Positions 1-45,228 of a stretch of 64,000 bases of DNA are shown here, piece after piece. The notes beneath the pieces were generated by a model. The model saw only the letters and a list, made by a program, of their open reading frames with translations, was not told where the DNA came from and did not search any database. The first letter of the stretch is position 1. The number at the start of each line of letters is the position of its first letter. The DNA is taken from NCBI GenBank assembly GCA_964016885.1, contig OZ024742.1, forward strand, positions 228,842,001-228,906,000, written 5' to 3'. The stretch is from Eledone cirrhosa. Taxonomy: Eukaryota. A program made the position numbers and the translations under genes.

Positions 1-12
1 AACCGAAGGAGC

Positions 13-200
13 CAAATAGTAATAATAATATATTTGAACACTAAAATCCAAAGAGGGCTCGATAAGGATAAATATATATAAAATATATAAGAACCGTAGA
101 GCAAATATTTATTAAAATAACAGATTAAAGTTTAAGCAAAGAATCGCTGCTTTCATACTTAACAGGATCTTCTGAAACTAACAAAGTCAATCTGTGAAAG
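13..200 (-). mobile_element. Small non-coding (TA)n-associated element, family B (other copies 28278-28690, 33541-33724, fragment ~58255-58293)
   Basis: The sequence GGGCTCGATAAGGATA...AAAGAATCGCTGCTTTCA...GGATCTTCTGAAAC recurs at about 28500-28580 and 33541-33660. The other copies are fold-back palindromes flanked by (TA)n. Strand is inferred from a CAGAAGA...GAAA HHR-like motif and the 3' motif. Confidence 0.6.
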
Positions 201-1127
201 CACTCGCCATAGGTATACAAATACACGCACGTACACACAAAAAAACCCCCAAAACCCACAAGCACATACAGAACCCACGCAACGCCTGTACCCGCACGCA
301 TACGAAATGTATAACCTGTAAAATAAGCCCCCATATTAACTGTAAAACTAGAAATGTAGTATATAGCATAAGATGTACTGAAGGACAATGTAGAGACAAA
401 AATATAGTGTACATAGGTGAGACAGCTCGTAGTGTAGGGGAACGGATAAATGAACACTGGCGAGATCTTCAAGATAGTAAAGAATCATCTGTACTCTACC
501 AACATGCTAAAATAGAACATAAGGGTAAATTAGAGAACATAGAAATAAAAATAGAATCTACAACCAGAAAAGACGCAATGTTTAGACAAATGACAGAGGC
601 AATAAACATAAAAGAATTACAACCAAAATTAAATAGAAAATATGAGTGGAACAGCAACATCACAACTTACAATTAAGGACAAAATGAAAACACACACGCA
701 CACAGAACAAACAATCAGCCGGTAACATGTAAAGAAACAAATAAATAAACGAATATAAACACACACAGATACCCGGATGTGGCGCATGCGCAGACTGAGC
801 ACACAACACACACACAGAAACAAAATGGCGTAGGACAGAACAAAGGAGAGGCACAAAAACAAAGAAAAGAATCCCCAGTCACTGAAGAGGTCACAGAATG
901 TGTGACCAAAGAACTTTGACAATATATAAACAACCATCTGGTTGTGGAACCACCAACCAACCGGAAATTTATAAATTCCTCAATTTATAAATTTATTATA
1001 ATAAATTGAAGTGAAAGCAACTGGTACGTGTGTTTCTTATTGGCAACATGACCCTCCCAAAGTATAACAATATCGGTTTCAACACACGTTTTCAGATAAA
1101 GAATCTTGCTAAACAAATTCAGAAACG

Positions 1128-1128
<1 letters not shown>
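194..1128 (+). mobile_element. 3' fragment of a Penelope-like retroelement (Neptune/Nematis-like): GIY-YIG endonuclease plus 3' UTR/pLTR
   Basis: ORF 194-676 contains CxxC..NCKTRNVVYSIRC..YIGETARSVGERINEHW..E A INI..P.LN, a PLE GIY-YIG domain. It is highly similar to 34659-35450 (minus strand) and ends at a (TA)n tract. Confidence 0.9.
878..920 (+). ncRNA. Type I hammerhead ribozyme-like motif in the PLE 3' UTR (G12 missing in this copy)
   Basis: gtca-CTGAAGA-ggtcaca(gaatg)tgtgacc-AAA-gaac-TT-tgac. Stem I is gtca/tgac and stem II is 7 bp. Homologous to the motif at 41354-41395. Confidence 0.7.
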
Positions 1129-1180
<52 letters not shown>

Positions 1181-1306
1181 AATATAGACATAGAATATTC
1201 GAAAATATTCTGTATGTTTATAATAAACATTTTGAAGACCTAATCGCTATAGAATAGAATACGTCACGTATTACAATTAGATTCTCGATAAAAGCAAGGG
1301 AAGTAA

Positions 1307-2898
1307 GTCTACGCGTTTCATTCTTGTTAGAATTCATCAGGACTACATATCCAGTGCTTTTATCGAGAATGACACAGCTAGAGACTTATAGAATACTTAG
1401 CTGTGTACAGGAACTGGTTTGAAAGAGCGGTTGCCGGTCCGGCAGAAATTAGAAATTGGAATAAATGCTCTGAAATAGCGATATATATGTGAATATAGAC
1501 ATAGAATATTCGAAAATATTCTGTATGTTTATAATAAACATTTTGAAGACCTAATCGCTATAGAATAGAATACGTCACGTATTACAATTAGATTCTCGAT
1601 AAAAGCAAGGGAAGTAAGTCTACGCGTTTCATTCTTGTTAGAATTCATCAGGACTACATATCCAGTGCTTTTATCGAGAATGACACAGCTAGAGACTTAT
1701 AGAATACTTAGCTGTGTACAGGAACTGGTTTGAAAGAGCGGTTGCCGGTCCGGCAGAAATTAGAAATTGGAATAAATGCTCTGAAATAGCGATATATATG
1801 TGAATATAGACATAGAATATTCGAAAATATTCTGTATGTTTATAATAAACATTTTGAAGACCTAATCGCTATAGAATAGAATACGTCACGTATTACAATT
1901 AGATTCTCGATAAAAGCAAGGGAAGTAAGTCTACGCGTTTCATTCTTGTTAGAATTCATCAGGACTACATATCCAGTGCTTTTATCGAGAATGACACAGC
2001 TAGAGACTTATAGAATACTTAGCTGTGTACAGGAACTGGTTTGAAAGAGCGGTTGCCGGTCCGGCAGAAATTAGAAATTGGAATAAATGCTCTGAAATAG
2101 CGATATATATGTGAATATAGACATAGAATATTCGAAAATATTCTGTATGTTTATAATAAACATTTTGAAGACCTAATCGCTATAGAATAGAATACGTCAC
2201 GTATTACAATTAGATTCTCGATAAAAGCAAGGGAAGTAAGTCTACGCGTTTCATTCTTGTTAGAATTCATCAGGACTACATATCCAGTGCTTTTATCGAG
2301 AATGACACAGCTAGAGACTTATAGAATACTTAGCTGTGTACAGGAACTGGTTTGAAAGAGCGGTTGCCGGTCCGGCAGAAATTAGAAATTGGAATAAATG
2401 CTCTGAAATAGCGATATATATGTGAATATAGACATAGAATATTCGAAAATATTCTGTATGTTTATAATAAACATTTTGAAGACCTAATCGCTATAGAATA
2501 GAATACGTCACGTATTACAATTAGATTCTCGATAAAAGCAAGGGAAGTAAGTCTACGCGTTTCATTCTTGTTAGAATTCATCAGGACTACATATCCAGTG
2601 CTTTTATCGAGAATGACACAGCTAGAGACTTATAGAATACTTAGCTGTGTACAGGAACTGGTTTGAAAGAGCGGTTGCCGGTCCGGCAGAAATTAGAAAT
2701 TGGAATAAATGCTCTGAAATAGCGATATATATGTGAATATAGACATAGAATATTCGAAAATATTCTGTATGTTTATAATAAACATTTTGAAGACCTAATC
2801 GCTATAGAATAGAATACGTCACGTATTACAATTAGATTCTCGATAAAAGCAAGGGAAGTAAGTCTACGCGTTTCATTCTTGTTAGAATTCATCAGGAC
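1307..2898 (-). ncRNA. Six minimal type I hammerhead ribozymes (37 nt each, starting at 1307, 1618, 1929, 2240, 2551, 2862)
   Basis: Reverse complement of gtc-CTGATGA-attct(aaca)agaat-GAAA-CGCG-TA-gac in each unit. Confidence 0.9.
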
Positions 2899-3081
2899 TA
2901 CATATCCAGTGCTTTTATCGAGAATGACACAGCTAGAGACTTATAGAATACTTAGCTGTGTACAGGAACTGGTTTGAAAGAGCGGTTGCCGGTCCCGCTC
3001 TTTCAAACCAGTTCCTGTACACAGCTAAGTATTCTATAAGTCTCTAGCTGTGTCATTCTCGATAAAAGCACTGGATATGTA

Positions 3082-4673
3082 GTCCTGATGAATTCTAACA
3101 AGAATGAAACGCGTAGACTTACTTCCCTTGCTTTTATCGAGAATCTAATTGTAATACGTGACGTATTCTATTCTATAGCGATTAGGTCTTCAAAATGTTT
3201 ATTATAAACATACAGAATATTTTCGAATATTCTATGTCTATATTCACATATATATCGCTATTTCAGAGCATTTATTCCAATTTCTAATTTCTGCCGGACC
3301 GGCAACCGCTCTTTCAAACCAGTTCCTGTACACAGCTAAGTATTCTATAAGTCTCTAGCTGTGTCATTCTCGATAAAAGCACTGGATATGTAGTCCTGAT
3401 GAATTCTAACAAGAATGAAACGCGTAGACTTACTTCCCTTGCTTTTATCGAGAATCTAATTGTAATACGTGACGTATTCTATTCTATAGCGATTAGGTCT
3501 TCAAAATGTTTATTATAAACATACAGAATATTTTCGAATATTCTATGTCTATATTCACATATATATCGCTATTTCAGAGCATTTATTCCAATTTCTAATT
3601 TCTGCCGGACCGGCAACCGCTCTTTCAAACCAGTTCCTGTACACAGCTAAGTATTCTATAAGTCTCTAGCTGTGTCATTCTCGATAAAAGCACTGGATAT
3701 GTAGTCCTGATGAATTCTAACAAGAATGAAACGCGTAGACTTACTTCCCTTGCTTTTATCGAGAATCTAATTGTAATACGTGACGTATTCTATTCTATAG
3801 CGATTAGGTCTTCAAAATGTTTATTATAAACATACAGAATATTTTCGAATATTCTATGTCTATATTCACATATATATCGCTATTTCAGAGCATTTATTCC
3901 AATTTCTAATTTCTGCCGGACCGGCAACCGCTCTTTCAAACCAGTTCCTGTACACAGCTAAGTATTCTATAAGTCTCTAGCTGTGTCATTCTCGATAAAA
4001 GCACTGGATATGTAGTCCTGATGAATTCTAACAAGAATGAAACGCGTAGACTTACTTCCCTTGCTTTTATCGAGAATCTAATTGTAATACGTGACGTATT
4101 CTATTCTATAGCGATTAGGTCTTCAAAATGTTTATTATAAACATACAGAATATTTTCGAATATTCTATGTCTATATTCACATATATATCGCTATTTCAGA
4201 GCATTTATTCCAATTTCTAATTTCTGCCGGACCGGCAACCGCTCTTTCAAACCAGTTCCTGTACACAGCTAAGTATTCTATAAGTCTCTAGCTGTGTCAT
4301 TCTCGATAAAAGCACTGGATATGTAGTCCTGATGAATTCTAACAAGAATGAAACGCGTAGACTTACTTCCCTTGCTTTTATCGAGAATCTAATTGTAATA
4401 CGTGACGTATTCTATTCTATAGCGATTAGGTCTTCAAAATGTTTATTATAAACATACAGAATATTTTCGAATATTCTATGTCTATATTCACATATATATC
4501 GCTATTTCAGAGCATTTATTCCAATTTCTAATTTCTGCCGGACCGGCAACCGCTCTTTCAAACCAGTTCCTGTACACAGCTAAGTATTCTATAAGTCTCT
4601 AGCTGTGTCATTCTCGATAAAAGCACTGGATATGTAGTCCTGATGAATTCTAACAAGAATGAAACGCGTAGAC
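3082..4673 (+). ncRNA. Six minimal type I hammerhead ribozymes (starting at 3082, 3393, 3704, 4015, 4326, 4637)
   Basis: gtc-CTGATGA-attct(aaca)agaat-GAAA-CGCG-TA-gac. It has the canonical CUGAUGA/GAAA core, a GUA cleavage triplet and a palindromic ACGCGU stem III, and is enclosed by a 16-bp stem ATTCTCGATAAAAGCA/TGCTTTTATCGAGAAT. Confidence 0.92.
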
Positions 4674-4956
4674 TTACTTCCCTTGCTTTTATCGAGAATC
4701 TAATTGTAATACGTGACGTATTCTATTCTATAGCGATTAGGTCTTCAAAATGTTTATTATAAACATACAGAATATTTTCGAATATTCTATGTCTATATTC
4801 ACATATATATCGCTATTTCAGAGCATTTATTCCAATATATATATATATATATAAAATTGAAAAAGTGAAGAATAACATGGTCAACAGTACAACAAACTAT
4901 CCATAATAAGTACTCACAACCTCTAACTGGATTACCTATAACGATATTTTGTTATC

Positions 4957-5020
<64 letters not shown>

Positions 5021-5070
5021 GTACAAACACGTATATATATATACATATATGTATTAACATTTATCATATA

Positions 5071-5192
5071 ACTGACACGCGTTTCGCCGGTCTACAAGTG
5101 AACAAGATCTAGAAATATTAGTCCGATAGGATTTATCGGAGAATTCAATTTCCAATATTTTGTATCCACGTGGTAAATCAGCTCCTCGGAAT
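5071..5192 (-). ncRNA. Degenerate hammerhead-like motif with a ~100-nt stem II
   Basis: att-CCGAGGA-gctgatttacca...(long imperfect hairpin)...tgtagaccggc-GAAAC-gcgt-GTC-agt. Confidence 0.4.
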
Positions 5193-5234
5193 GAAGCACT
5201 GTTTATCATTCGCTTTAATTATTATATTATATTA

Positions 5235-5422
5235 GGTGGATTGGCAGTATCGGTAGAGGGTCGGACGACATGCTTTGCAGCAAAGAGTTACGGCCCTTTA
5301 TGGTCTGAGTTCAAATCCCGCCGAGGCTAACTTTGCCTTTCATCCTTACGGGGTCGATGAAATAAAGTACCAGTAATGCACTGAGTAATTGCTGGCCTTG
5401 TGCCAAAAGTAGAAACAATTAT
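5235..5422 (+). mobile_element. tRNA-derived SINE (~190 bp; abundant family, >20 copies in window)
   Basis: A box TGGCAGTATCGG, B box GAGTTCAAATCC, conserved core GCCTTTCATCCTTACGGGGTCGATAAAATAAAGTACC and an AAACAATTATT tail. Confidence 0.85.
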
Positions 5423-5879
5423 GTTATATTTATATATATATATTCTTCGTCTTCTTCGGCCGAGTTTACACTCGCAAAGATTCAGCACGCTTTCTCCAAT
5501 CGTCCCGGTCGAGCTTGACATTACTCAGTTCGTCTATGTTATCATTCATAGAGTAATTATAGGAACACGGCGCAAGGAAGCTATTAAAACAACAAAAGGC
5601 CATCAATGGCGGCGTCGGGTAAAACTTACCTCAAAGGATAGAAATCCAAGGTTAGAAGTGTGTTGGCCCGTAGGCGTGATAGGAAGAAATGAGAAAGTGA
5701 TAAAATAGTCGAGAGGGGATCTCACAAACATTAAATTTCCTCCTCCTTCTCCTCCTTCTTCTTCTGATTTCAGTTTAACCCAAAAGTCACCCCCCCCCCA
5801 TATCTTAACTTTAGACGCCTTTACTGCTTATGCTCCGACTTTTCACGTCTGCTTGTACGGCACGTGCAAGAAGGAGGAT

Positions 5880-6430
5880 TTATTTCCAAGCCATGTTTTG
5901 AAAGCCGTTATCTTTTACTAGAATGGTATCTTTGATCATTTGATTTAACCATGGGGTACACATGCCACCCGGCGCCACACCAAACCACTTATACCCGCAG
6001 CATTTAAAAGCTGAAGCAGATTCTGTTGAACTGAACAGTCTCCACTCCGTTCCAACGTCATCAGTTTTCTCTGGGTGTTCTCTGAATTTGGATGCAATAG
6101 TATCCACATACACGGTACTGACTTCCTTATCTGCCAGCGCTTTCCTCTTTATCTTTATCCTGTAGGTCGACCTGGATTAGCCAGTTTTGTAGGTTTCTTT
6201 GGCTTTAGGTAGTCTCAATTTGTTGGTAATTTGATGGTTGACAGCTCAGCCACTCTCTTAACACGAACATCTAGCACAGAATTGAAGAGATCAGAGATAA
6301 TAACAAAAACAATTGTTGATCTTTGTTCTCGATCCCCCTTATCCCATGTGTATTTATGGATGTCTTTGTGCCGAAAGAAGTTCATAAGGGGGTGTCCATT
6401 GCTAGAATAGAAGTCTGATAAGGACTCTCC
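5880..6430 (-). pseudogene. RTE-clade LINE fragment (C-terminal part of the AP endonuclease)
   Basis: Translation FFRHKDIHKYTW...RSTIVFVIISDL..VLDVRVKRVAELST resembles the NTFF.HK..HKYTW...DVRVKRGAEL.TDH APE signature of RTE elements. Confidence 0.7.
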
Positions 6431-7092
6431 ATTATATACATACAAATATAAAAATAGAAAAACATACACACATATATTTATATATGCTAACACGTTTTGT
6501 TGAATATAGTGATGCATTATTGGAATCTATCTATGTCAATTAGCTAGCCATCCAATTAACGAACCATCCAACTGACAAGCCATTCACTCGACTAGTAATG
6601 CAGCTATCCACCCATTTTCTCAACCAAACATCCATCCATCCAACCATCAACACAAACAGCCATCCATCCAATCAGCCAATCAGACAATCAACCCAGTTAT
6701 CAGCAATGTGTGTCAGAAACAATGCAAGCAGTAAAGCTGTGGTGTAATAAAACTAACACAAGAAACGTATCTCCTATTTTATTCGATAACAAAAAGAAAA
6801 AATTCGATTGTGGAAATGAAGTTGTGGCAAAAATGGCCGCCAGCTGTGTGAATGTATCAGAGTTTTCACGCTGGAGCAACATTACTTCACACTATTGCTT
6901 CCTTACAAGCTCATTCATACACCCACCCAGACGCGTACACGCACGCACACACACACACGCACACACACACACACACGCACATATATATGTATATATATAT
7001 GTATATATATGTATTGTTATACTTGGGGAGGGTCATATTTGTGTAATATTGCCAGAATTAATTCATCGCCGTTATATATATGTATATATACA

Positions 7093-7131
<39 letters not shown>

Positions 7132-7132
7132 C

Positions 7133-7179
<47 letters not shown>

Positions 7180-7183
<4 letters not shown>

Positions 7184-7287
7184 CGAAGGAAATGTGGTAA
7201 GGAACCAGATGGACCATAACGCACCAAAGTACTCAATACTTAGGGTAGTTGAGTGGGTAATAGGAACAAGAAGGACACCTACTTGTT

Positions 7288-7290
<3 letters not shown>
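7180..7290. mobile_element. Family C small (TA)n-inserted element, short fold-back copy
   Basis: AACGAAGGAAATGTGGTAAGGAACCAG...AAGTACTCAATAC matches 55288-55497 and 46386-46583. It ends in the hairpin AGGAACAAG...CTTGTTCCT. Confidence 0.7.
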
Positions 7291-7357
<67 letters not shown>

Positions 7358-7817
7358 CATACACACACACACACACATACACACATATATAAATGCACAC
7401 GTATGTGTGTATGTGTTTAAACTAGTGCATCCTAGTTGCTTTACTCTCCTTCTCAAACGAAACCCCAATCTCCCAAATGAAATTACGGTAAACACTAAAT
7501 ATTAAATTATAAATAAAAGAATATCTCATAATCTTTGATATTTCAATAATTAACATGGAACTATAAGAATATAACCTAAATACCCTTTATTCGTAGACAC
7601 ACAGTCTTGTTTGCATGAGGCGTGGAACATTGGAAACACACGAAAGATATAATCTAAGACGGCAAGAAATTTTCGAAAATATAATAGAAAATTTATTGCT
7701 TCTACAATTATCATATATTTATAATTATATAGAAATATGTAGTTCAATATATTGACACAAATAGAATTAGCTGATTTCTATATAGCTTCTAACATATGTT
7801 GGTCGTAAGTCCATTAC

Positions 7818-8232
7818 CAGCATCATCGACATCGTCGTTATATCTGTGTTGTCGTCGTTGGTGTCATCATTCTCATCGTTGTCGTTGTTGTCGTCGAAAT
7901 CATCATCATCATCATCATCATAATCATCATCATCATCATCATCAACATCATCTTCAGAGTCATAATCTTCTTCATCTTTTTCAGCATCGACATAATCTTT
8001 ATGATCGTCATCATCATCATCGTGTTCGTCGTATTTAACATCATCACCATCATCATCATCATCAACATAATCTTCAGATTCATCATCGTCTTCATCTTTT
8101 TCAGCATCGACATGAATCTTTATGATCGTCACCATTATCATCATCGTGTTCATCGTATTTAACATCATCATCATCATCATCATCATCATCATTCATCATC
8201 ATCATCATCATCACCACCATCATCATTGTCAT
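7818..8232. repeat. (CAT/ATG)n compound microsatellite with an internal ~120-bp duplication
   Basis: ATC repeats; TTCATCTTTTTCAGCATCGACAT occurs at ~7971 and ~8091. Confidence 0.85.
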
Positions 8233-13861: not shown

Positions 13862-16800
13862 GAGCTGGTGGTGGTGGTGGTAATGTTAGCAGTGGTGGGG
13901 TGGTGGTGGTGGTGGTGGTGGTAGTATTGGTGGTGGTGGTGTTAATGTTAGTAGTGGTGGTGGTGGTATTGGTGGTGGTGGTGTTAATGGTGGTATTGGT
14001 GGTGGTGGTGGTGTGGTGGTGGTGGTGGTGGTGGTATTGGTGGTGGTGGTGGTGTTGATGGTGGTATTGGTGGTGGTGGTGTTAATGTTAGTAGTGGTGG
14101 TGGTGGTATTGGTGGTGGTGGTGTTAATGGTGGTATTGGTGGTGGTGGTGGTGATGGTAGTGTTAGCAGTGGTGGTGGTGTGGTGGTGGTGGTGGTGGTG
14201 GTATTGGTGGTGGTGGTGGTGTTGATGGTGGTATTGGTGGTGGTGGTGTTAATGTTAGTAGTGGTGGTGGTGGTATTGGTGGTGGTGGTGTTAATGTTAG
14301 TAGTGGTGGTGGTGGTATTGGTGGTGGTGGTGTTGGTGGTGGTATTGGTGGTGGTGGTGATATTGGTGGTGGTGGTGTTGGTGGTGGTATTGGTGGTGGT
14401 GGTGATATTGGTGGTGGTGGTGTTGGTGGTGGTATTGGTGGTATTGGTGGTGGTGGTGGTGGTGGTGGTGGTGGTTGTGGTAATGTTAGTAGTAGTGGTG
14501 GTGGTATTAGTGATATTGGTGGCGATGGTGTTAATGTTAGTAGTAGTGGTGGTGGTATTGGTGGTATTGGCGGTATTGGTGGTGATGGTGTTAATGTTAG
14601 TAGTGGTGGTGTTATTGGTGGTGGTGGTAATGTTAGTAGTGGTGGTGGTGGTATTGATGGTGGTGGTGTTAATGTTAGTAGTGGTGGTGTTATTGGTGGT
14701 GGTGGTAATGTTAGTAGTGGTGGTGTTATTGGTGGTGGTGGTGTCGGTATTGGTGGTGGTGGTAATGTTAGTAGTGGTGGTGGTGGTATTGATGGTGGTG
14801 GTGGTAATGTTAGTAGTGGTGGTATTGGTGGTGGTGGTGGTAATGTTAGTAGTGGTGGTGGTGGTATTGGTGGTGGTAATGTTAGTAGTGGTGGTGTTAT
14901 TGGTGGTGGTGGTGGTATTGATGGTGGTGGTGGTAATGTTAGTAGTGGTGGTGTTATTGGTGGTGGTGGTGGTATTGATGGTGGTGGTGGTAATGTTAGT
15001 AGTGATGGTGTTATTGGTGGTGGTGGTGGTATTGGTGGTGGTGGTGTTATTGGTGGTGGTGGTGGTATTGGTGGTGGTGGTGGTATTGGTGGTGGTGGTG
15101 GTATTGGTGGTGGTGGTAATGTTAGTAGTGGTGGTGTTATTGGTGGTGGTGGTGGTATTGATGGTGGTGGTGTTATTGGTGGTGGTGGTGGTATTGGTGG
15201 TGGTGGTAATGTTAGTAGTGGTGGTGTTATTGGTGGTGGTGGTGGTATTGATGGTGGTGGTGTTATTGGTGGTGGTGGTGGTATTGATGGTGGTGGTGGT
15301 AATGTTAGTAGTGGTGGTGTTATTGGTGGTGGTGGTGGTATTGATGGTGGTGGTGTTATTGGTGGTGGTGGTGGTATTGGTGGTGGTGGTGGTAATGTTA
15401 GTAGTGGGGGTGGTATTGATGGTGGTGGTGGTATTGGTGGTGGTGGTAATGTTAGTAGTGGTGGTGTTATTGGTGGTGGTGGTGGTATTGGTGGTGGTGG
15501 TGGTAATGTTAGTAGTGGTGGTGTTATTGGTGGTGGTGGTGGTATTGATGGTGGTGGTGTTATTGGTGGTGGTGGTGGTATTGGTGGTGGTGGTAATGTT
15601 AGTAGTGGTGGTGGTATTGATGGTGGTGGTGTTATTGGTGGTGGTGGTGGTATTGGTGCTGGTGGTAATGTTAGTAGTGGTGGTGGTGGTATTGATGGTG
15701 GTTGTGGTAATGTTAGTAGTGGTGGTATTGGTGGTGGTGGTGGTAATGTTAGCAGTGTTGGTGGTGGTATTGGTGGTGGTGGTGGTAATGTTAGTAGTAG
15801 TGGTGGTGATGTTATTAATGTTAGTAGTGGTGGTGGTGGTATTGGTGGTGGTGCTGGTGGTGGTAATATTAGTAGTGGTGGTGGTGATGTTGGTGGTATT
15901 GTTAGTAGTGGTGTGGTGGTGGTGGTGTTGCTATTGGTGGTGGTGGTGGTATTGGTGGTGTTGGTGGTGTTGGTATTGGTGGTATTGGTGGTGATGTTGT
16001 TAATGTTAGTAGTGGTGGTGGTGGTATTGGTGGTGGCGGTGGTAATATTAGTAGTGGTGGTGGTGATGTTGGTGGTATTGTTAGTAGTGGTGGTGGTGAT
16101 GGTGGTGGTGTTGGTATTGGTGGTGGTGGTGTTATTGTTAGTAGTGGTGGTGGTGGTATTGATGGTGGTATTGTTAGTAGTGGTGGTTGTGGCGGTGGTG
16201 ATGGTGGTATTGGTGGTGGTGGTGGTGGTGGAGGTGGTGGCGTTAATAATGATGGTGATGTTGATGGTGGTGGTTGTGGTGGTGGTATTGGTGGCTTTAA
16301 TGGGGGTGCTGATGGTGGTGGTGGTGGTGGCATTGGTGGCAGTAATAGTGTTGGTGTTGGTGGGGGTGGGGGTGTTGGCGAGGGTGGAGGTGGTGGTGAT
16401 GGTTGTGGTGTTGATGGTGATGGAGTTAATGGTTAGTAGTGGTTGGTAGTGGTGGTGGTATTGCTGGTGGCGTTAATAATGGTGGTGATGTTGATGTTGA
16501 TGGCGGTGGTGGCGGTGGTTGTAATGTTGACAATAGAGGTGGTGTTAATAAAGGTAGGATTGGAGGCGGTGGTGATGGTGGCGGTGGTGTTGTTGGTGTT
16601 GGTGCTGATGGTGGAGGTGTTAGTGCTGAAGGTGTTAATGTTAATAGTAGTTATTGGTGGTGGTGTTGGTGGTGATGGTGCTGATAGAGAAGGTGTTAGT
16701 GCTGAAGGTGTCGATGTTAATAGTAGTGGTATTGGTGGTGGTTACGTTGGTTGTGGTGTTGGTGGTTATGCTGATGGTGGTGGTGTTGATAGTGGTGGTA

Positions 16801-17073
16801 ATGTTGGCAGTAGTTGTGGTGTTAATAATGGTGGTGGTGGTGGTGATAGTGGTGGTGCTGATTATGGTGATGGTGGTGGTATTCATGGGAGTGGTGTTTG
16901 TGGTGGAGCTGTTGTTGTTAATGGTGGTGTTGGTGGGGTAGTGTTGATGGTTGTAGTGTTGATAATGGTATTGATGTTGTTTTATGTTGGTGGTGATGAC
17001 GATGTTGATGGTGTTGACAATGTTGGTGGTGTTGATAGTATGGCATTGATGCTGAAGATGATACTGTTGATGT

Positions 17074-32562: not shown

Positions 32563-32912
<350 letters not shown>

Positions 32913-33540
32913 AAAAATATATATATATATATATACAGTATTAGTAGGTAAGGCGACACAAACAAGAGATGGACAGTTTCCCTTCGTCAGTTGTCTACTA
33001 CGGGTCACGGATATATTTATATATATGAATATAAATAATATTATATATCTATATCCATACACAGAACAATACGACTTTATTCTTTAGGTTTAAAGATCAA
33101 GTTATAGTTATGGCAATCTTCTCAGATTGTGGACGGTGGTACAAAATGCGTAGAGCGATCAATGTCGTGACCCCGTGTTCAGACACTGGGAAGAGTTCAA
33201 AAATAGCGTTAAACATACATATACGTGTATGTATGTGTACAACAGTCATAACGTACACATTCTCGACATTTTCATAACTTTGCTGTAGCTATACTTCATA
33301 GAACTACTGCATATTTCTTTTTATTACTTCACAGCAATCCTTTACTCCTGTAGCGATCAATAAGATTTATTGCGTAATATACCAGAAGTGGCAGTCAGTC
33401 ATGTAGGCTGAAGGTAGTACGAGTTAGGAGGAGGTGGGGGAAGGTGAGACGATGGAGATTGAAAGATTGTAAAACTCTAGTTAAGCACAATGACGGGGGA
33501 TAGATAGAGGTTTTTTGTGATATATATATATATATATATA

Positions 33541-41143: not shown

Positions 41144-41353
41144 GATATATATATATATTGTTATACTTGGGGAGGGTCATATTTGTGTAATATTGCCAGA
41201 ATTAATAACAGAACACACTCACTGTTTGGTTGGTTTTCGCTTCTGTGTCTTTTATATCGGTAATCTAATTTATTAGGTCCTCAATGTTGCCATTGACTGA
41301 CCAACGGTCAAAAATACAGATACAATATAGACACAAACACATATATATAGTTT

Positions 41354-41395
41354 ATCAAAATTCTTTCGTTGCACATCTGCAACATCATCAGTGGT
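41354..41395 (-). ncRNA. Type I hammerhead ribozyme in the PLE 3' UTR/pLTR
   Basis: acca-CTGATGA-t-gttgca(gatg)tgcaac-GAAA-gaat-TT-tgat; same sense as the ORF. Confidence 0.72.
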
Positions 41396-42173
41396 GCTAT
41401 TGTTTCCTCCCGTTGCATTTTATTTTCTACGCCATCTTTATTTAGTCTATTTATATATTTATTTATTTGTTTATTTTATTTTGTCTTCTTTGCGCATGCG
41501 TTTGCGTCTGTGTATAGTGTTTTGTTTGATGTGTGTTCGTGATTGGGTGACTGTGTATTGGTAAATGTATTCTATCTTTACTAGTGTGTGTTTATATGTG
41601 TTTGTTGTTATTGTGCTTGTGTATGTATTTATTTATTTATTTATCTAGTTATTTATTTATACTTCTCTTAGGTCAGTGTTGTTTGTTTGGGTGTTGTTGT
41701 TATTCCATTCATTCTTTCTGTTTAGCCTTGGCCTTCTAAATTCTATTTCACTGGCCTCTCTGATTTGCGTATCTGCTGGGTCATTTCTATGTTTAGATAT
41801 TATTCTAATTTCTATGTTGTCTATGTTACCGTCGTGTTGTTGTCTGGGATGTTCGTATAGTACTGAACCGTTTTTTCGTCCTTTTAGTTCCTACCAGTAT
41901 TGGTCTATCCTTTCACCTATGCTACGAGCTGTCTCGCCTATGTATGTTGTTGTCATGTTTCATACATTTCCTATTAGTACAGTGGGTTTTCTTAAAAGGG
42001 TAGGTTTTGCTGATCAGGGATTTTATGGTGGTTCCTGGCTTTTCTACCACCTTAATCTCCAAGTGGGTCTTTCTCAGGGCCTTTCTACACTGGTTAGCTA
42101 ATTTCCCTCCAGGGATAGCGTCCACAAACATGACACTCTGGTATCTCTGGTTGTCGTACCATGAGGTGGCTTT

Positions 42174-43565
42174 CTATATCTTATGTCTAGCCCTATATAA
42201 TCTATTCCATGATTTGCTCCTGTATAATGGGCAAATTCCTTTCATGTCCAGTTCTATGAGGGTCTTATACTTCTCCGTGACTCCTTCGTATACTCTGACT
42301 CTGTCTCTTTGGTTGTAGCCAGAGAACTGCATGCGGTTGATGAAGTGTTGGATGTGTCTTTCCATTTCTGTTGGGTCGCACATACGGGACACATTCTTCA
42401 TCACTCGTACCAAATCTGCGATCAGAATATTAAACTTTGCACTACTGGACATTGCTGAGTTTTTGAGTATCAGGTATTTGGAGGCCATGGCTTTAGCATA
42501 GTGTGAGTGGAGAATTTGGGCTCTCTCGTCTATAGTGTTAATCCAGTGTTCCGTGTCTAATACAGGTAGTCTATTGTTAGGGTGTTTGGAAGGGTAGTCG
42601 ATAGTTACAGTTCTACTTTGGTGTATGGAATTAGCTATCTGCTGGATGCTTTCCATTGTGCTATATTCTAAATCCAACTTGTTAGTGCTCTCTTGTGGGG
42701 ATGTTCTTATAACTATATTGATATCGTCTACGTAACGAGAGTACATGATGAGGTCTATGGAGCTCTCATTAAGGAGATCTTTAAGTCTCCTTTCCCACCA
42801 TACCATAAAAAGGTTGGCAACGTCACCAGCTATGCTGACGCCAATGGCTGCTCCCTCATTTTGGGTGTAGATCTTCTCGTTGAACTTGAATATGTGGCCC
42901 TTTAGGGTAGTTTTGATACTAGCCCCCATTGCATGTGCGACCATTTTTCTTACCTGATCATTGTTTTGGGGGGTCTGTATAGCTTTGGTCCATCCAATCC
43001 ACCTTCCCATGGGAGTCCTTTTAGCCATTGAGGTTATGGTGGGGGGTCTACCTCTTATGGGTCTACTAGGGCAGAAACGTCTAAGGTCATGGCTGTCTAG
43101 GTAGTCAGTGTCGTAGGTAAGTCTAAGTAGGAGGCCCAGTTCGTCTGTGTCGACGTCGCAGAACTCCACCTCACTCTCAATGATCATCACACATTTTTCC
43201 ACAGCAAAATCAATGTTAATGGATGGGTACAGTGATACCACATCCATGCTGCCTATTATGCAGTTGGATAGGTTCCTGTTTTTGTTGCACTCACCGATTC
43301 TGCTGAGGAGGTCCTCTGTACTGTCACATACATCTCGGGACATCTTGATTGTGGGGCGTATAACCATTGACAGGAAGTAGGAGATCCTGTAGTTGCTAGC
43401 TATATTTGCTCCGCATACGGGTCTTGTTGGTGGTCCTGTTGTCGGGTCCTCGACTGCCTTGTGGTCTTTGCGGAGCACATACAAGGGTGGTATGCCATTG
43501 TTAGACGCCTGGAAGTTGTTGGCAGTGCGTCTGCTTGGCTTTAGGATGTCGGTCCACATCATCAT
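42174..43565 (-). pseudogene. PLE reverse transcriptase core and thumb (frameshifted from flanking ORFs)
   Basis: 463-aa open frame with all RT motifs including YVDD. Confidence 0.9.
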
Positions 43566-45228
43566 GTGAGCGACAGGATTTTCTCTCTCCCATCATGTAT
43601 TTGCTGTGCAATTTCGCTCGTGTTGGTGATGTGGGGCTGCATAGCCTTGATGTAGTTAGGCATGCTATCTATTGACATCCTACCAGACTTATCCGTGGGT
43701 AGACATACTACCTCACCATCCCTTGTGCGCTGCTTGAGGCTAACCGAGCCTTCTACAGGTTTCTTCCCAAGTTGTTGGGCCTCTGGTCTGCTCTGTCTCT
43801 TAGTATACCTGTCTACTATTTGTTTAATCTTATTTCTAGCTATGGTGAACTGTGCCTCTGTCTCGTCATCTATTTGTTGTGGTATGCAAACTCTTTTATT
43901 AAAGGGTAACCTCGTAGGATAGATATTACCCATCTTATATGTTTTGTCAGCTGGGCTGAAGAATAGTTTCTCTAAGGGGTTGTCATTATATCTATCGTCA
44001 TAGTTGTGTGTGTTGCTATTATTGTTATTATGGTGGTTGTTGTTGTTCCTATCATTAGCATTATTATTATTTTTATGATTGCTAGATGTATTGTTGCTGT
44101 GATTGTTGTTTTCTTCACTGTTATTGTTGTTGTTACTGTTATTTCTACCATTGTGGTTGTTACTTTTATTATGTTTCTTGTTTTTGTTGTGTCTATCATT
44201 AATGTTGCTACATGTATTATTTCTATTATTACCACTGTGGTTGTTGTTGCTGTTATTCGTATTGTTACCGTTATTACTACTGTGGTCGCTGCTGCTGTGT
44301 CTGTAGTTAATGTTTCTATTATTATTATTATTGTGGTTGTTGTTGTTGTTCTGTCTATCGTTAGTATTATTACCATTATTACTATTTCTCATTCTCCTGC
44401 TATTGCTATTGTTATGACTATTACTATTATAGCTGTTATTTCTATACTCAGAGTTATTGTTTATATTAATACTACCGTTATTATTGTTGTTGTTGTCCGT
44501 ATAGTTGTTGTTGTTGTTTACTTTTCCATTCCAACGTACTTTTGTGAAACACTTTTCCAGCTTCGTTTTGCACTCAATAGGGTTAATCTTTTTGTAGATG
44601 GCAAATTTTAGTGGTAGATGCAGGATTTGTTGTTCTTGTTCACTGATTAAAGTGTTCCCAGAAATATTTACTGTGTGGTCATTGGTAAATTCTTCCGGTA
44701 GTTCTACATCAGCCGTACGGATATTGTTGATGTTATCTGGGTATTTTTGAGAATATTCTAGTTTCCTTTCTTCTAGTTTTTTCTTATTCATCGATTCTAA
44801 TTTCTTATTGAAATGCCTATTGCATTCGTTTCGGGCGTATTTCGTTTCACGTCGGATGACGCTCATGAAGTCATCCCTTTCGTTTGGTGTGGTGAGATTT
44901 TGGACTTCCTTACCGTTAATGCGTTTCTGTCTGTAGAGTTCGTTGACTTTTGTGTATGTTGTTCTTTTCATATTAACTGTTATTGTGTGTTTTAGTCATT
45001 CCGCTTGTGTTTTGTTCAATAATAAATTATTTACTTGTTTTGATATGTTTGTTGTGTATATTTTGGAGGAAACACAGGGTTTTAAGAAGCGGATTTGTTC
45101 TGTTGTTATTGTAGTTTTTATATAACAGAAATATGACCCTCCCCAAGTATAACAATAGTTGTTTCGACACACGATTTCATATCAAAAACCAACCTCGCAA
45201 AACTAATATATATATATATATATATATA

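Follow-up and report, generated by a model that had tools for sequence, protein, structure and literature searches.

Metazoan non-LTR (non-long-terminal-repeat) retrozymes are short, non-coding tandem repeats with a hammerhead ribozyme in every copy, for which a circular RNA intermediate copied by an autonomous reverse transcriptase (RT) has been proposed, with Penelope-like elements (PLEs) as strong candidates for the source of that enzyme (PMC7229834). PLEs that bear an endonuclease, in turn, leave insertions with an inverted, 5'-truncated copy, a 30-40-bp tail at one end only, and AT-rich microsatellite targets (PMC3846280, PMC8557442). In vitro, the anole PLE Poseidon cuts and extends both strands of an AT-rich target and has two internal RT start sites downstream of its hammerhead, bounding a 30-40-nt tail (PMC11167929). 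In the accessible parts of this literature, two matters are stated as open: what is the origin of the tandem and inverted structures of PLEs and of their one-sided tail (PMC8557442, PMC3846280, PMC11167929), and do animal retrozyme circles template an autonomous RT (PMC7229834, bioRxiv 10.64898/2026.07.22.740005)? For the tandems, Li, Clavereau and Pollet suggest local amplification (bioRxiv 10.64898/2026.07.22.740005). Here we describe a retrozyme family of Eledone cirrhosa, starting from one copy in a 64,000-nt stretch of contig OZ024742.1 (assembly GCA_964016885.1, positions 228,842,001 to 228,906,000 of the forward strand; hereafter the window). We propose that this non-LTR retrozyme is probably inserted by a PLE protein, with the two ends of a (TA)n break priming on one, probably circular, RNA.

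The window's element was described in an earlier note as a single perfect tandem array with 12 identical hammerheads at 1171..4836. The 12 cores are present, with no difference between units, and the end at 4836 holds, but Tandem Repeats Finder calls two perfect 311-bp arrays (1170-2995 and 2995-4836) with six cores on each strand, and the start lies at 1170, where 8 nt are shared with (TA)n. The two arms are reverse complements that form a perfect 1,816-bp inverted repeat around a 9-nt spacer; the hammerhead-sense strands diverge from the centre, and each ends in (TA)n. On the left, a (TA)n target run (1130..1177), which shares its last 8 nt with the ATATATAT of the unit itself (site A), leads into an arm of 5.87 identical units with hammerhead sense on the minus strand (1170..2995; outer end at site A). 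Its six minus-strand hammerheads (1303..2901) have CUGAUGA starts at 2895, 2584, 2273, 1962, 1651 and 1340 and predicted cleavage, read on the minus strand, after 2865, 2554, 2243, 1932, 1621 and 1310. The central joint (2986..2995) consists of the 9-nt spacer between the perfect inverted arms, with a 1-nt microhomology at 2995. The right arm, 5.92 identical units on the plus strand (2995..4836), has its outer end at site B, where it meets the right (TA)n target run (4835..4853) with a 2-nt AT overlap. Its first type I hammerhead (3079..3122) has predicted cleavage after A3115, where the GUA triplet ends, as the earlier note had it, and the five later plus-strand hammerheads after 3426, 3737, 4048, 4359 and 4670. 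The unit is 311 bp long and about 35% GC. It is indeed non-coding, as had been claimed: its longest stop-free frame is 59 aa, and it contains no open reading frame (ORF) with the RT or GIY-YIG domain of an autonomous PLE. A 39-codon frame from the core ATG was dismissed because it depends on the extra base of the window's subtype, whose 311-nt form is one base longer than the common 310-nt form. The absence of any difference among units fits the very recent insertion proposed earlier.

All 12 copies have a type I core, with CUGANGA, GAAA, an NUH triplet and stems I-III, stem I being open. The parts are stem I GUAGUC, CUGAUGA, a 5-bp stem II with an AACA loop, GAAA, a palindromic ACGCGU stem III and GUA. 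Two further structures already noticed are present: a 16-bp stem (3055-3070 with 3129-3144, plus strand) that closes the hammerhead domain (3055..3144) and covaries across sister families, and a second hairpin (ACACAGCTA/TAGCTGTGT). The circular monomer folds at -67.2 kcal/mol, compared with -47.2 +/- 5.0 for 100 dinucleotide shuffles. The ACGCGU self-duplex is worth -9.5 kcal/mol, and the minimum-energy fold of a two-ribozyme stretch pairs both palindromes, giving the double-hammerhead form through stem III that is known for metazoan type I motifs (PMC4209133). The proposed search with Rfam hammerhead models brought no match at threshold. Among matches in window 1-8000 at E<=1 there was no hammerhead model, and a 121-nt stretch gave only Hammerhead_HH9 at 17.8 bits (E 0.028), short of the gathering score of 52; the microRNA models that matched in 1-8000 were sub-threshold and arise from the palindrome and the microsatellites. 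Our hammerhead call therefore rests on the core motifs and on covariation. In an alignment of 14 sequences of the hammerhead domain, 92.9% of cells are paired, versus 33-47% when the structure is slid; two-sided changes occur in 18 of 26 pairs, and core pair 3-8 is C-G in seven sequences and U-A in seven, although the 14 sequences are related, so that these changes are not independent events. This cross-family alignment was chosen because fixed variants within the young family were too sparse to test core avoidance; the recurrent ones affect the free position of the core, loop II or the base of stem II, or else produce G-U pairs. These data support the earlier prediction that the unit carries a dimer-type, minimal type I hammerhead, whose self-cleavage stands as a prediction. 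The commonest inherited indels lie at unit phases 2-3, i.e. two or three bases 3' of the cleavage site, and are possibly a trace of RNA ligation.

Like the metazoan non-LTR retrozymes, the element is dispersed and multicopy, and this, together with its low-GC non-coding tandem unit and a hammerhead in each copy, upholds the class to which it had been assigned. In the 3.0-Gb assembly (G000), where family copies were counted by sequence-pattern matching, the exact 40-nt ribozyme of the window's subtype occurs 1,144 times and an internal 36-mer of the unit 14,788 times, or some 15,000 units. On the plus strand, the unit meets (TA)n 815 times at site B and 725 times at site A (on the minus strand, several matches per end inflate the counts), and one exact site-B junction has 504 + 520 occurrences. 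From the end counts, we estimate a young family of about 1,500 loci. Older sister families share the module downstream of the ribozyme, one motif of which has 4,544 exact matches. The sister retrozymes (L045, L048, L090, L109, L112, L119, L141-L170) are about 314-321 nt long and alike in A/B module and inverted layout, and many of their members have U3-A8 rather than C3-G8 in the hammerhead core. Another non-coding family (L221-L244) is more decayed and has a related hairpin module, no canonical hammerhead being recognised in it, and two of its loci (L224 and L225) show the same inverted two-end layout as the retrozyme.

How is an insertion of the young family built? We sampled contig C1 and the window at the first places listed for the ribozyme 40-mer and the (TA)n-junction patterns. 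Of 110 clusters segmented, one belonged to a sister family, leaving 109 insertions, 99 of which are two-armed in the -/+ polarity of the window and none in the reverse +/- polarity; where loci were picked by the hammerhead 40-mer alone, 8/8 were two-armed. The outer flanks are TA-rich in 192 of 195 cases, which, with the family count, answers the earlier wish for a check of copy number and flanks. Numbering phase 1 as the first base 3' of the predicted cleavage site (window 3116), site A falls at phase 119-140, mostly 131 or 140, and site B at phase 166-173, a distance of 26-47 nt (the share of ends at exactly 166 is inflated by selection). Three of the two-armed insertions have an end cut off and two have an unclassified end (L129, L134); in all 94 that remain, the two ends divide between the sites, one at A and one at B (48 A/B, 46 B/A, 0 A/A, 0 B/B). 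Because locus selection fixed at most one end, the partner end is a free test of this rule. In the window, the left arm runs from phase 140 (site A) at its outer end to 181 at its inner end and the right arm from 191 at its inner end to 166 (site B) at its outer end, the two inner ends overlapping by 1 nt. Across loci, the 196 inner ends are spread evenly round the unit (p=0.19), and centre joints show a mean microhomology of 2.5 nt versus 0.77 at random, or short fillers that largely echo the unit. Arms reach 27 units, and the lengths of the two arms correlate weakly (rho 0.27, p=0.008; arm-geometry statistics are on 93 loci, the four-part L031 being left out). Candidate target-site duplications, 10-37 nt long, are present at 10 of the 39 informative loci, where shuffled pairs give a mean of 4.1 and a maximum of 8 (60 shuffles); we regard them as suggestive only. 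One centre (L060, 2099-2370) contains 272 nt that match a multicopy non-LTR-type retroelement at 98% identity, as a template jump or a capture at the joint could produce. That retroelement, which we read as a young non-LTR type from its RT-like motifs, has 39 of its 40 scored matches in a 5-Mb cluster (contig C25, 19-24 Mb) at 96-98% identity.

The polarity of the arms is informative. On each side, the strand that extends the target 3'-OH is antisense to the ribozyme strand, and, going by standard target-primed reverse transcription, two break ends that each prime complementary DNA (cDNA) on sense RNA would be expected to yield the polarity observed. The insertions also have the hallmarks of PLEs: a head-to-head copy (99/109), a tail of the 30-40-nt type at one end (94/94) and a microsatellite target (192/195). 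Furthermore, three PLE families in the same genome, with RT and/or GIY-YIG ORFs in sampled copies, are short at one end and tailed at the other in all 11 inverted pairs recovered from the sequence sampled. Because these families follow the same two-site rule, the retrozyme carries a PLE footprint, and the link to PLEs drawn in the earlier note is strengthened. PLE-type twin priming is thus, in our judgment, very probable. A conserved module, at 3172..3288 of the plus strand in one unit and common to the older sister families, contains site A (3246-3255) and site B (3281) and is likely an RT recognition and initiation signal. Three loci with long open PLE frames (L201, L202 and L203; 938, 844 and 1,096 aa), none with the retrozyme module, are candidates for the active RT. 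No ORF-linked module was found in 30 loci chosen by module motif, and a weakly similar module (24 matches), pursued as a partner lead, proved to be another non-coding family.

What template do the two arms copy? Both arms share their majority haplotype in 78 of the 82 loci with a full unit in each arm, where 29 haplotypes would give 10% by chance. Eleven variants, each confined to one locus of the sample, are present there in all units of both arms, over as many as 24 units. At two loci (L100 and L085), the haplotype order counted from the outer end is identical in both arms, which points to one molecule read in register. We consider it quite probable from these patterns that the same RNA molecule templates both arms. 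Is that molecule a circle? Inside the arms there are 1,068 cleavage-site junctions, of which 1,063 are one of four inherited types and 5 carry a single extra change; because nearly all are inherited types, the template appears covalently continuous rather than re-jumped. Additionally, private variants that are fixed throughout a locus imply a one-unit bottleneck followed by re-amplification, and a monomer circle would supply both. On this basis a monomer circle is reasonably likely to be the usual template. The rolling-circle reverse transcription suggested earlier is thus favoured as to its continuous, mostly monomer-circular template, but not as a single run, since the arms lie head-to-head and start at two fixed priming sites. 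Contigs from four sequencing runs of unknown kind were not counted as evidence: three runs (X4, X5 and X6) each gave a single contig of 340 nt over the unit, 310 nt plus an overlap of 30, which closes into a loop in the assembly graph, as would be expected of a circle and of a homogeneous tandem array alike, and a fourth (X1) gave 1,189 short pieces. No strand-changing joint was found among the run contigs, which were compared with a stretch outside the array centre.

We envision the following sequence of events. A multimeric transcript would self-cleave as a double hammerhead, and the monomers would be ligated into 310/311-nt circles. A PLE RT/GIY-YIG protein, perhaps a dimer, would bind the conserved module, which lies opposite the ribozyme, and nick both strands of a (TA)n target. 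Priming would then start at site A from one 3'-OH and at site B, 26-47 nt away, from the other, and each cDNA would roll round the template a random number of times, passing through the ligated cleavage site. Finally, the 3' ends of the cDNAs would join via short microhomology or filler, and host repair would fill in. In its most specific form, the proposal is one of coupled, double-ended rolling-circle reverse transcription by a PLE RT/endonuclease dimer, whose two active sites would be loaded 26-47 nt apart on one ribozyme-derived circle and each primed by one end of a (TA)n break; the odds of this version seem to us about even.

Several observations weigh against twin priming on a circle. 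Most sampled loci were selected by one end in (TA)n and come from contig C1 and the window only. Eight of the 109 insertions are one-armed as called (one of them, L056, carries an 11-nt stub of a second arm), and two are cut by a gap or fetch edge. In 50 GIY-YIG loci, of 10,596 first-look candidates, there was no protein-coding PLE with the retrozyme module. Shared haplotypes could be mimicked if expression were dominated by one donor. The long arm of L100 reads X,X and then 15 units of Y, an order that one monomer circle cannot yield and that needs a multimeric template or a joint template switch. L074 has mixed haplotypes out of register; there, and in a few long arms, later conversion or duplication has occurred, as it has in some arrays (L058+59, L060, L054). 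Lastly, near-equal arms are in excess (8/93 versus 2.5 expected, P=0.003, window included), which could reflect a fold-back minority or two RTs that stop together.

The alternative closest to our proposal keeps twin priming by a PLE protein but puts it on a linear multimer, transcribed from an arm already in place and left uncleaved, with no circle and with the ribozyme acting at another step. The in-register unit order in both arms of L100 and L085 is what such a template would give, clean cleavage junctions are equally compatible with it, and for the anole PLE in vitro hammerhead mutants had no effect on insertion and unprocessed RNA was the main substrate, according to the accessible text of that study (PMC11167929). 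However, given 280 unit-equivalents that both arms cover and a rate of 0.116 singleton changes per unit, about 30 single-unit variants should be shared, and we observe one shared singleton and one shared block against 72 unshared states; the expectation assumes donors as variable as present arrays, and younger, cleaner donors would weaken the test. Private variants fixed over up to 24 units additionally require the bottleneck of one unit and the re-amplification noted above, and we regard the linear multimer as unlikely. The second arm might instead be a copy of the first, made after a single priming event by fold-back or self-priming, a 2013 version of which has self-priming on an antisense template (PMC3846280). 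Such copying would naturally yield shared haplotypes and an in-register order, the window's centre resembles a hairpin with a 9-nt loop, two loci are joined through the 16-bp stem, and the near-symmetric loci (8/93) are what this model would produce. Because a hairpin model predicts inner ends close together and one arm contained in the other, the arm geometry speaks against it: the inner ends come within 20 nt of each other at 12 of the 93 loci, where chance would give 12.3, and at 12 of the 93, among them the window (by 10 nt), each arm extends beyond the other. The A arm is the longer in 42/93, so neither site always comes first, and site B, which matches (TA)n by only 2 nt, is exact nonetheless. 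Fold-back thus strikes us as decidedly improbable.

Two further explanations remain. In one, which follows the scenario of Li, Clavereau and Pollet (bioRxiv 10.64898/2026.07.22.740005, as far as its accessible text goes), a PLE end stump would insert once per locus and then expand as a minisatellite by unequal crossover. Later duplications and conversions in a few arrays, such as a 7-unit repeat in L058+59, are of this kind, but the arms are multimeric on both sides with identical haplotypes and arbitrary start phases, 144 of 186 arms are longer than two units, and a stump shorter than the unit could not expand into one that continues past site B and returns to the ribozyme; we give this scenario very little credence. 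The other holds that the inversion is an artefact of assembly or of read fold-back. The window's arms are nearly equal, as such an artefact would have it, and its centre is known from the assembly, yet the flanks are not mirrored, the arm ends lie at different, rule-bound sites, and the same anatomy recurs at 99 loci with different arm lengths and centres, one of which holds 272 nt of another retroelement. The worry about mis-assembly raised in the earlier note is largely answered in this way, and an artefact is scarcely conceivable. Twin priming by a PLE protein on one RNA remains the reading that we favour.

The surroundings of the element in the window also bear traces of PLEs. Immediately to its left, a PLE 3' fragment (182-1129, plus strand) contains a GIY-YIG frame (182-673; Pfam 22.9 bits) and a degenerate hammerhead-like motif near 881, and its tailed end enters the same (TA)n run that took the retrozyme. 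The right flank (4853-4959) is a small multicopy stump whose matches elsewhere consist of a piece of about 44 nt and another of about 66 nt in inverted orientation. Farther along, there is a palindromic stump with two facing hammerhead-like cores (32790-32920) and a larger inverted insertion of a PLE, short at one end and tailed at the other (41176-45137). At 13866-16951 lies a degenerate (TGG)n tract of 3 kb, in which the GC skew is extreme.

What is new here, and why does it matter? The element class is already known, as are inversion and the one-sided tail for PLEs themselves. We found no published account of an inverted, two-site, one-haplotype retrozyme layout, none of twin priming by PLEs and no publication on such a hammerhead family in octopus, in a search of main texts that took in few subscription journals. 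The small size of the unit, its near-invariance and its presence in about 1,500 fresh insertions make every locus a record of where priming took place, which template was used and how long the run was. This likely record of twin priming would make the unexplained insertion mechanism of PLEs testable, and the one-A-one-B rule and the single haplotype per locus are sharp predictions for the existing in vitro PLE assay. A compact RNA module is defined in the process, one that may direct the two-ended insertion of a circular template. If coupled double-ended rolling-circle copying is true, retrozyme circles would have their first genomic record as retrotransposition templates in these roughly 1,500 young insertions, which would also offer a general explanation for the inverted repeat and one-sided tail of PLEs.

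How, then, does this family stand beside the systems described so far? With the metazoan non-LTR retrozymes (PMC7229834) it shares a non-coding, low-GC tandem unit of about 300 bp and a type I hammerhead in each copy. The circles of those retrozymes were shown by blot, whereas here a circle is predicted from genomic sequence, and the arrays lie head-to-head in (TA)n with two fixed start sites; in the main text of that paper the words 'inverted', 'orientation' and 'microsatellite' do not occur. With the endonuclease-bearing PLEs, as described in the accessible portions of the reports, the window's element has in common the head-to-head inversion, the one-sided tail and the AT-rich microsatellite target, but it has no ORF and its arms are many-unit concatemers; where those papers (PMC8557442, PMC3846280) leave the mechanism open or invoke antisense self-priming, our counts favour two primers on sense RNA. 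Li, Clavereau and Pollet 2026 (bioRxiv 10.64898/2026.07.22.740005) likewise see non-LTR retrozymes as non-autonomous PLE derivatives; in the text accessible to us, their link comes from co-occurrence and pseudo-LTR (pLTR) phylogeny without insertion anatomy, whereas ours comes from the insertion footprint. The closest experimental counterpart is the anole Poseidon PLE (PMC11167929), whose 30-40-nt tail is matched by our A-B distance of 26-47 nt. In the available portion of that study, start sites do not differ between strands and have no homology to the target, and the templates are linear only, whereas in Eledone the two ends always start at different sites, site A matches (TA)n by up to 8 nt, and the template would usually be a circle.

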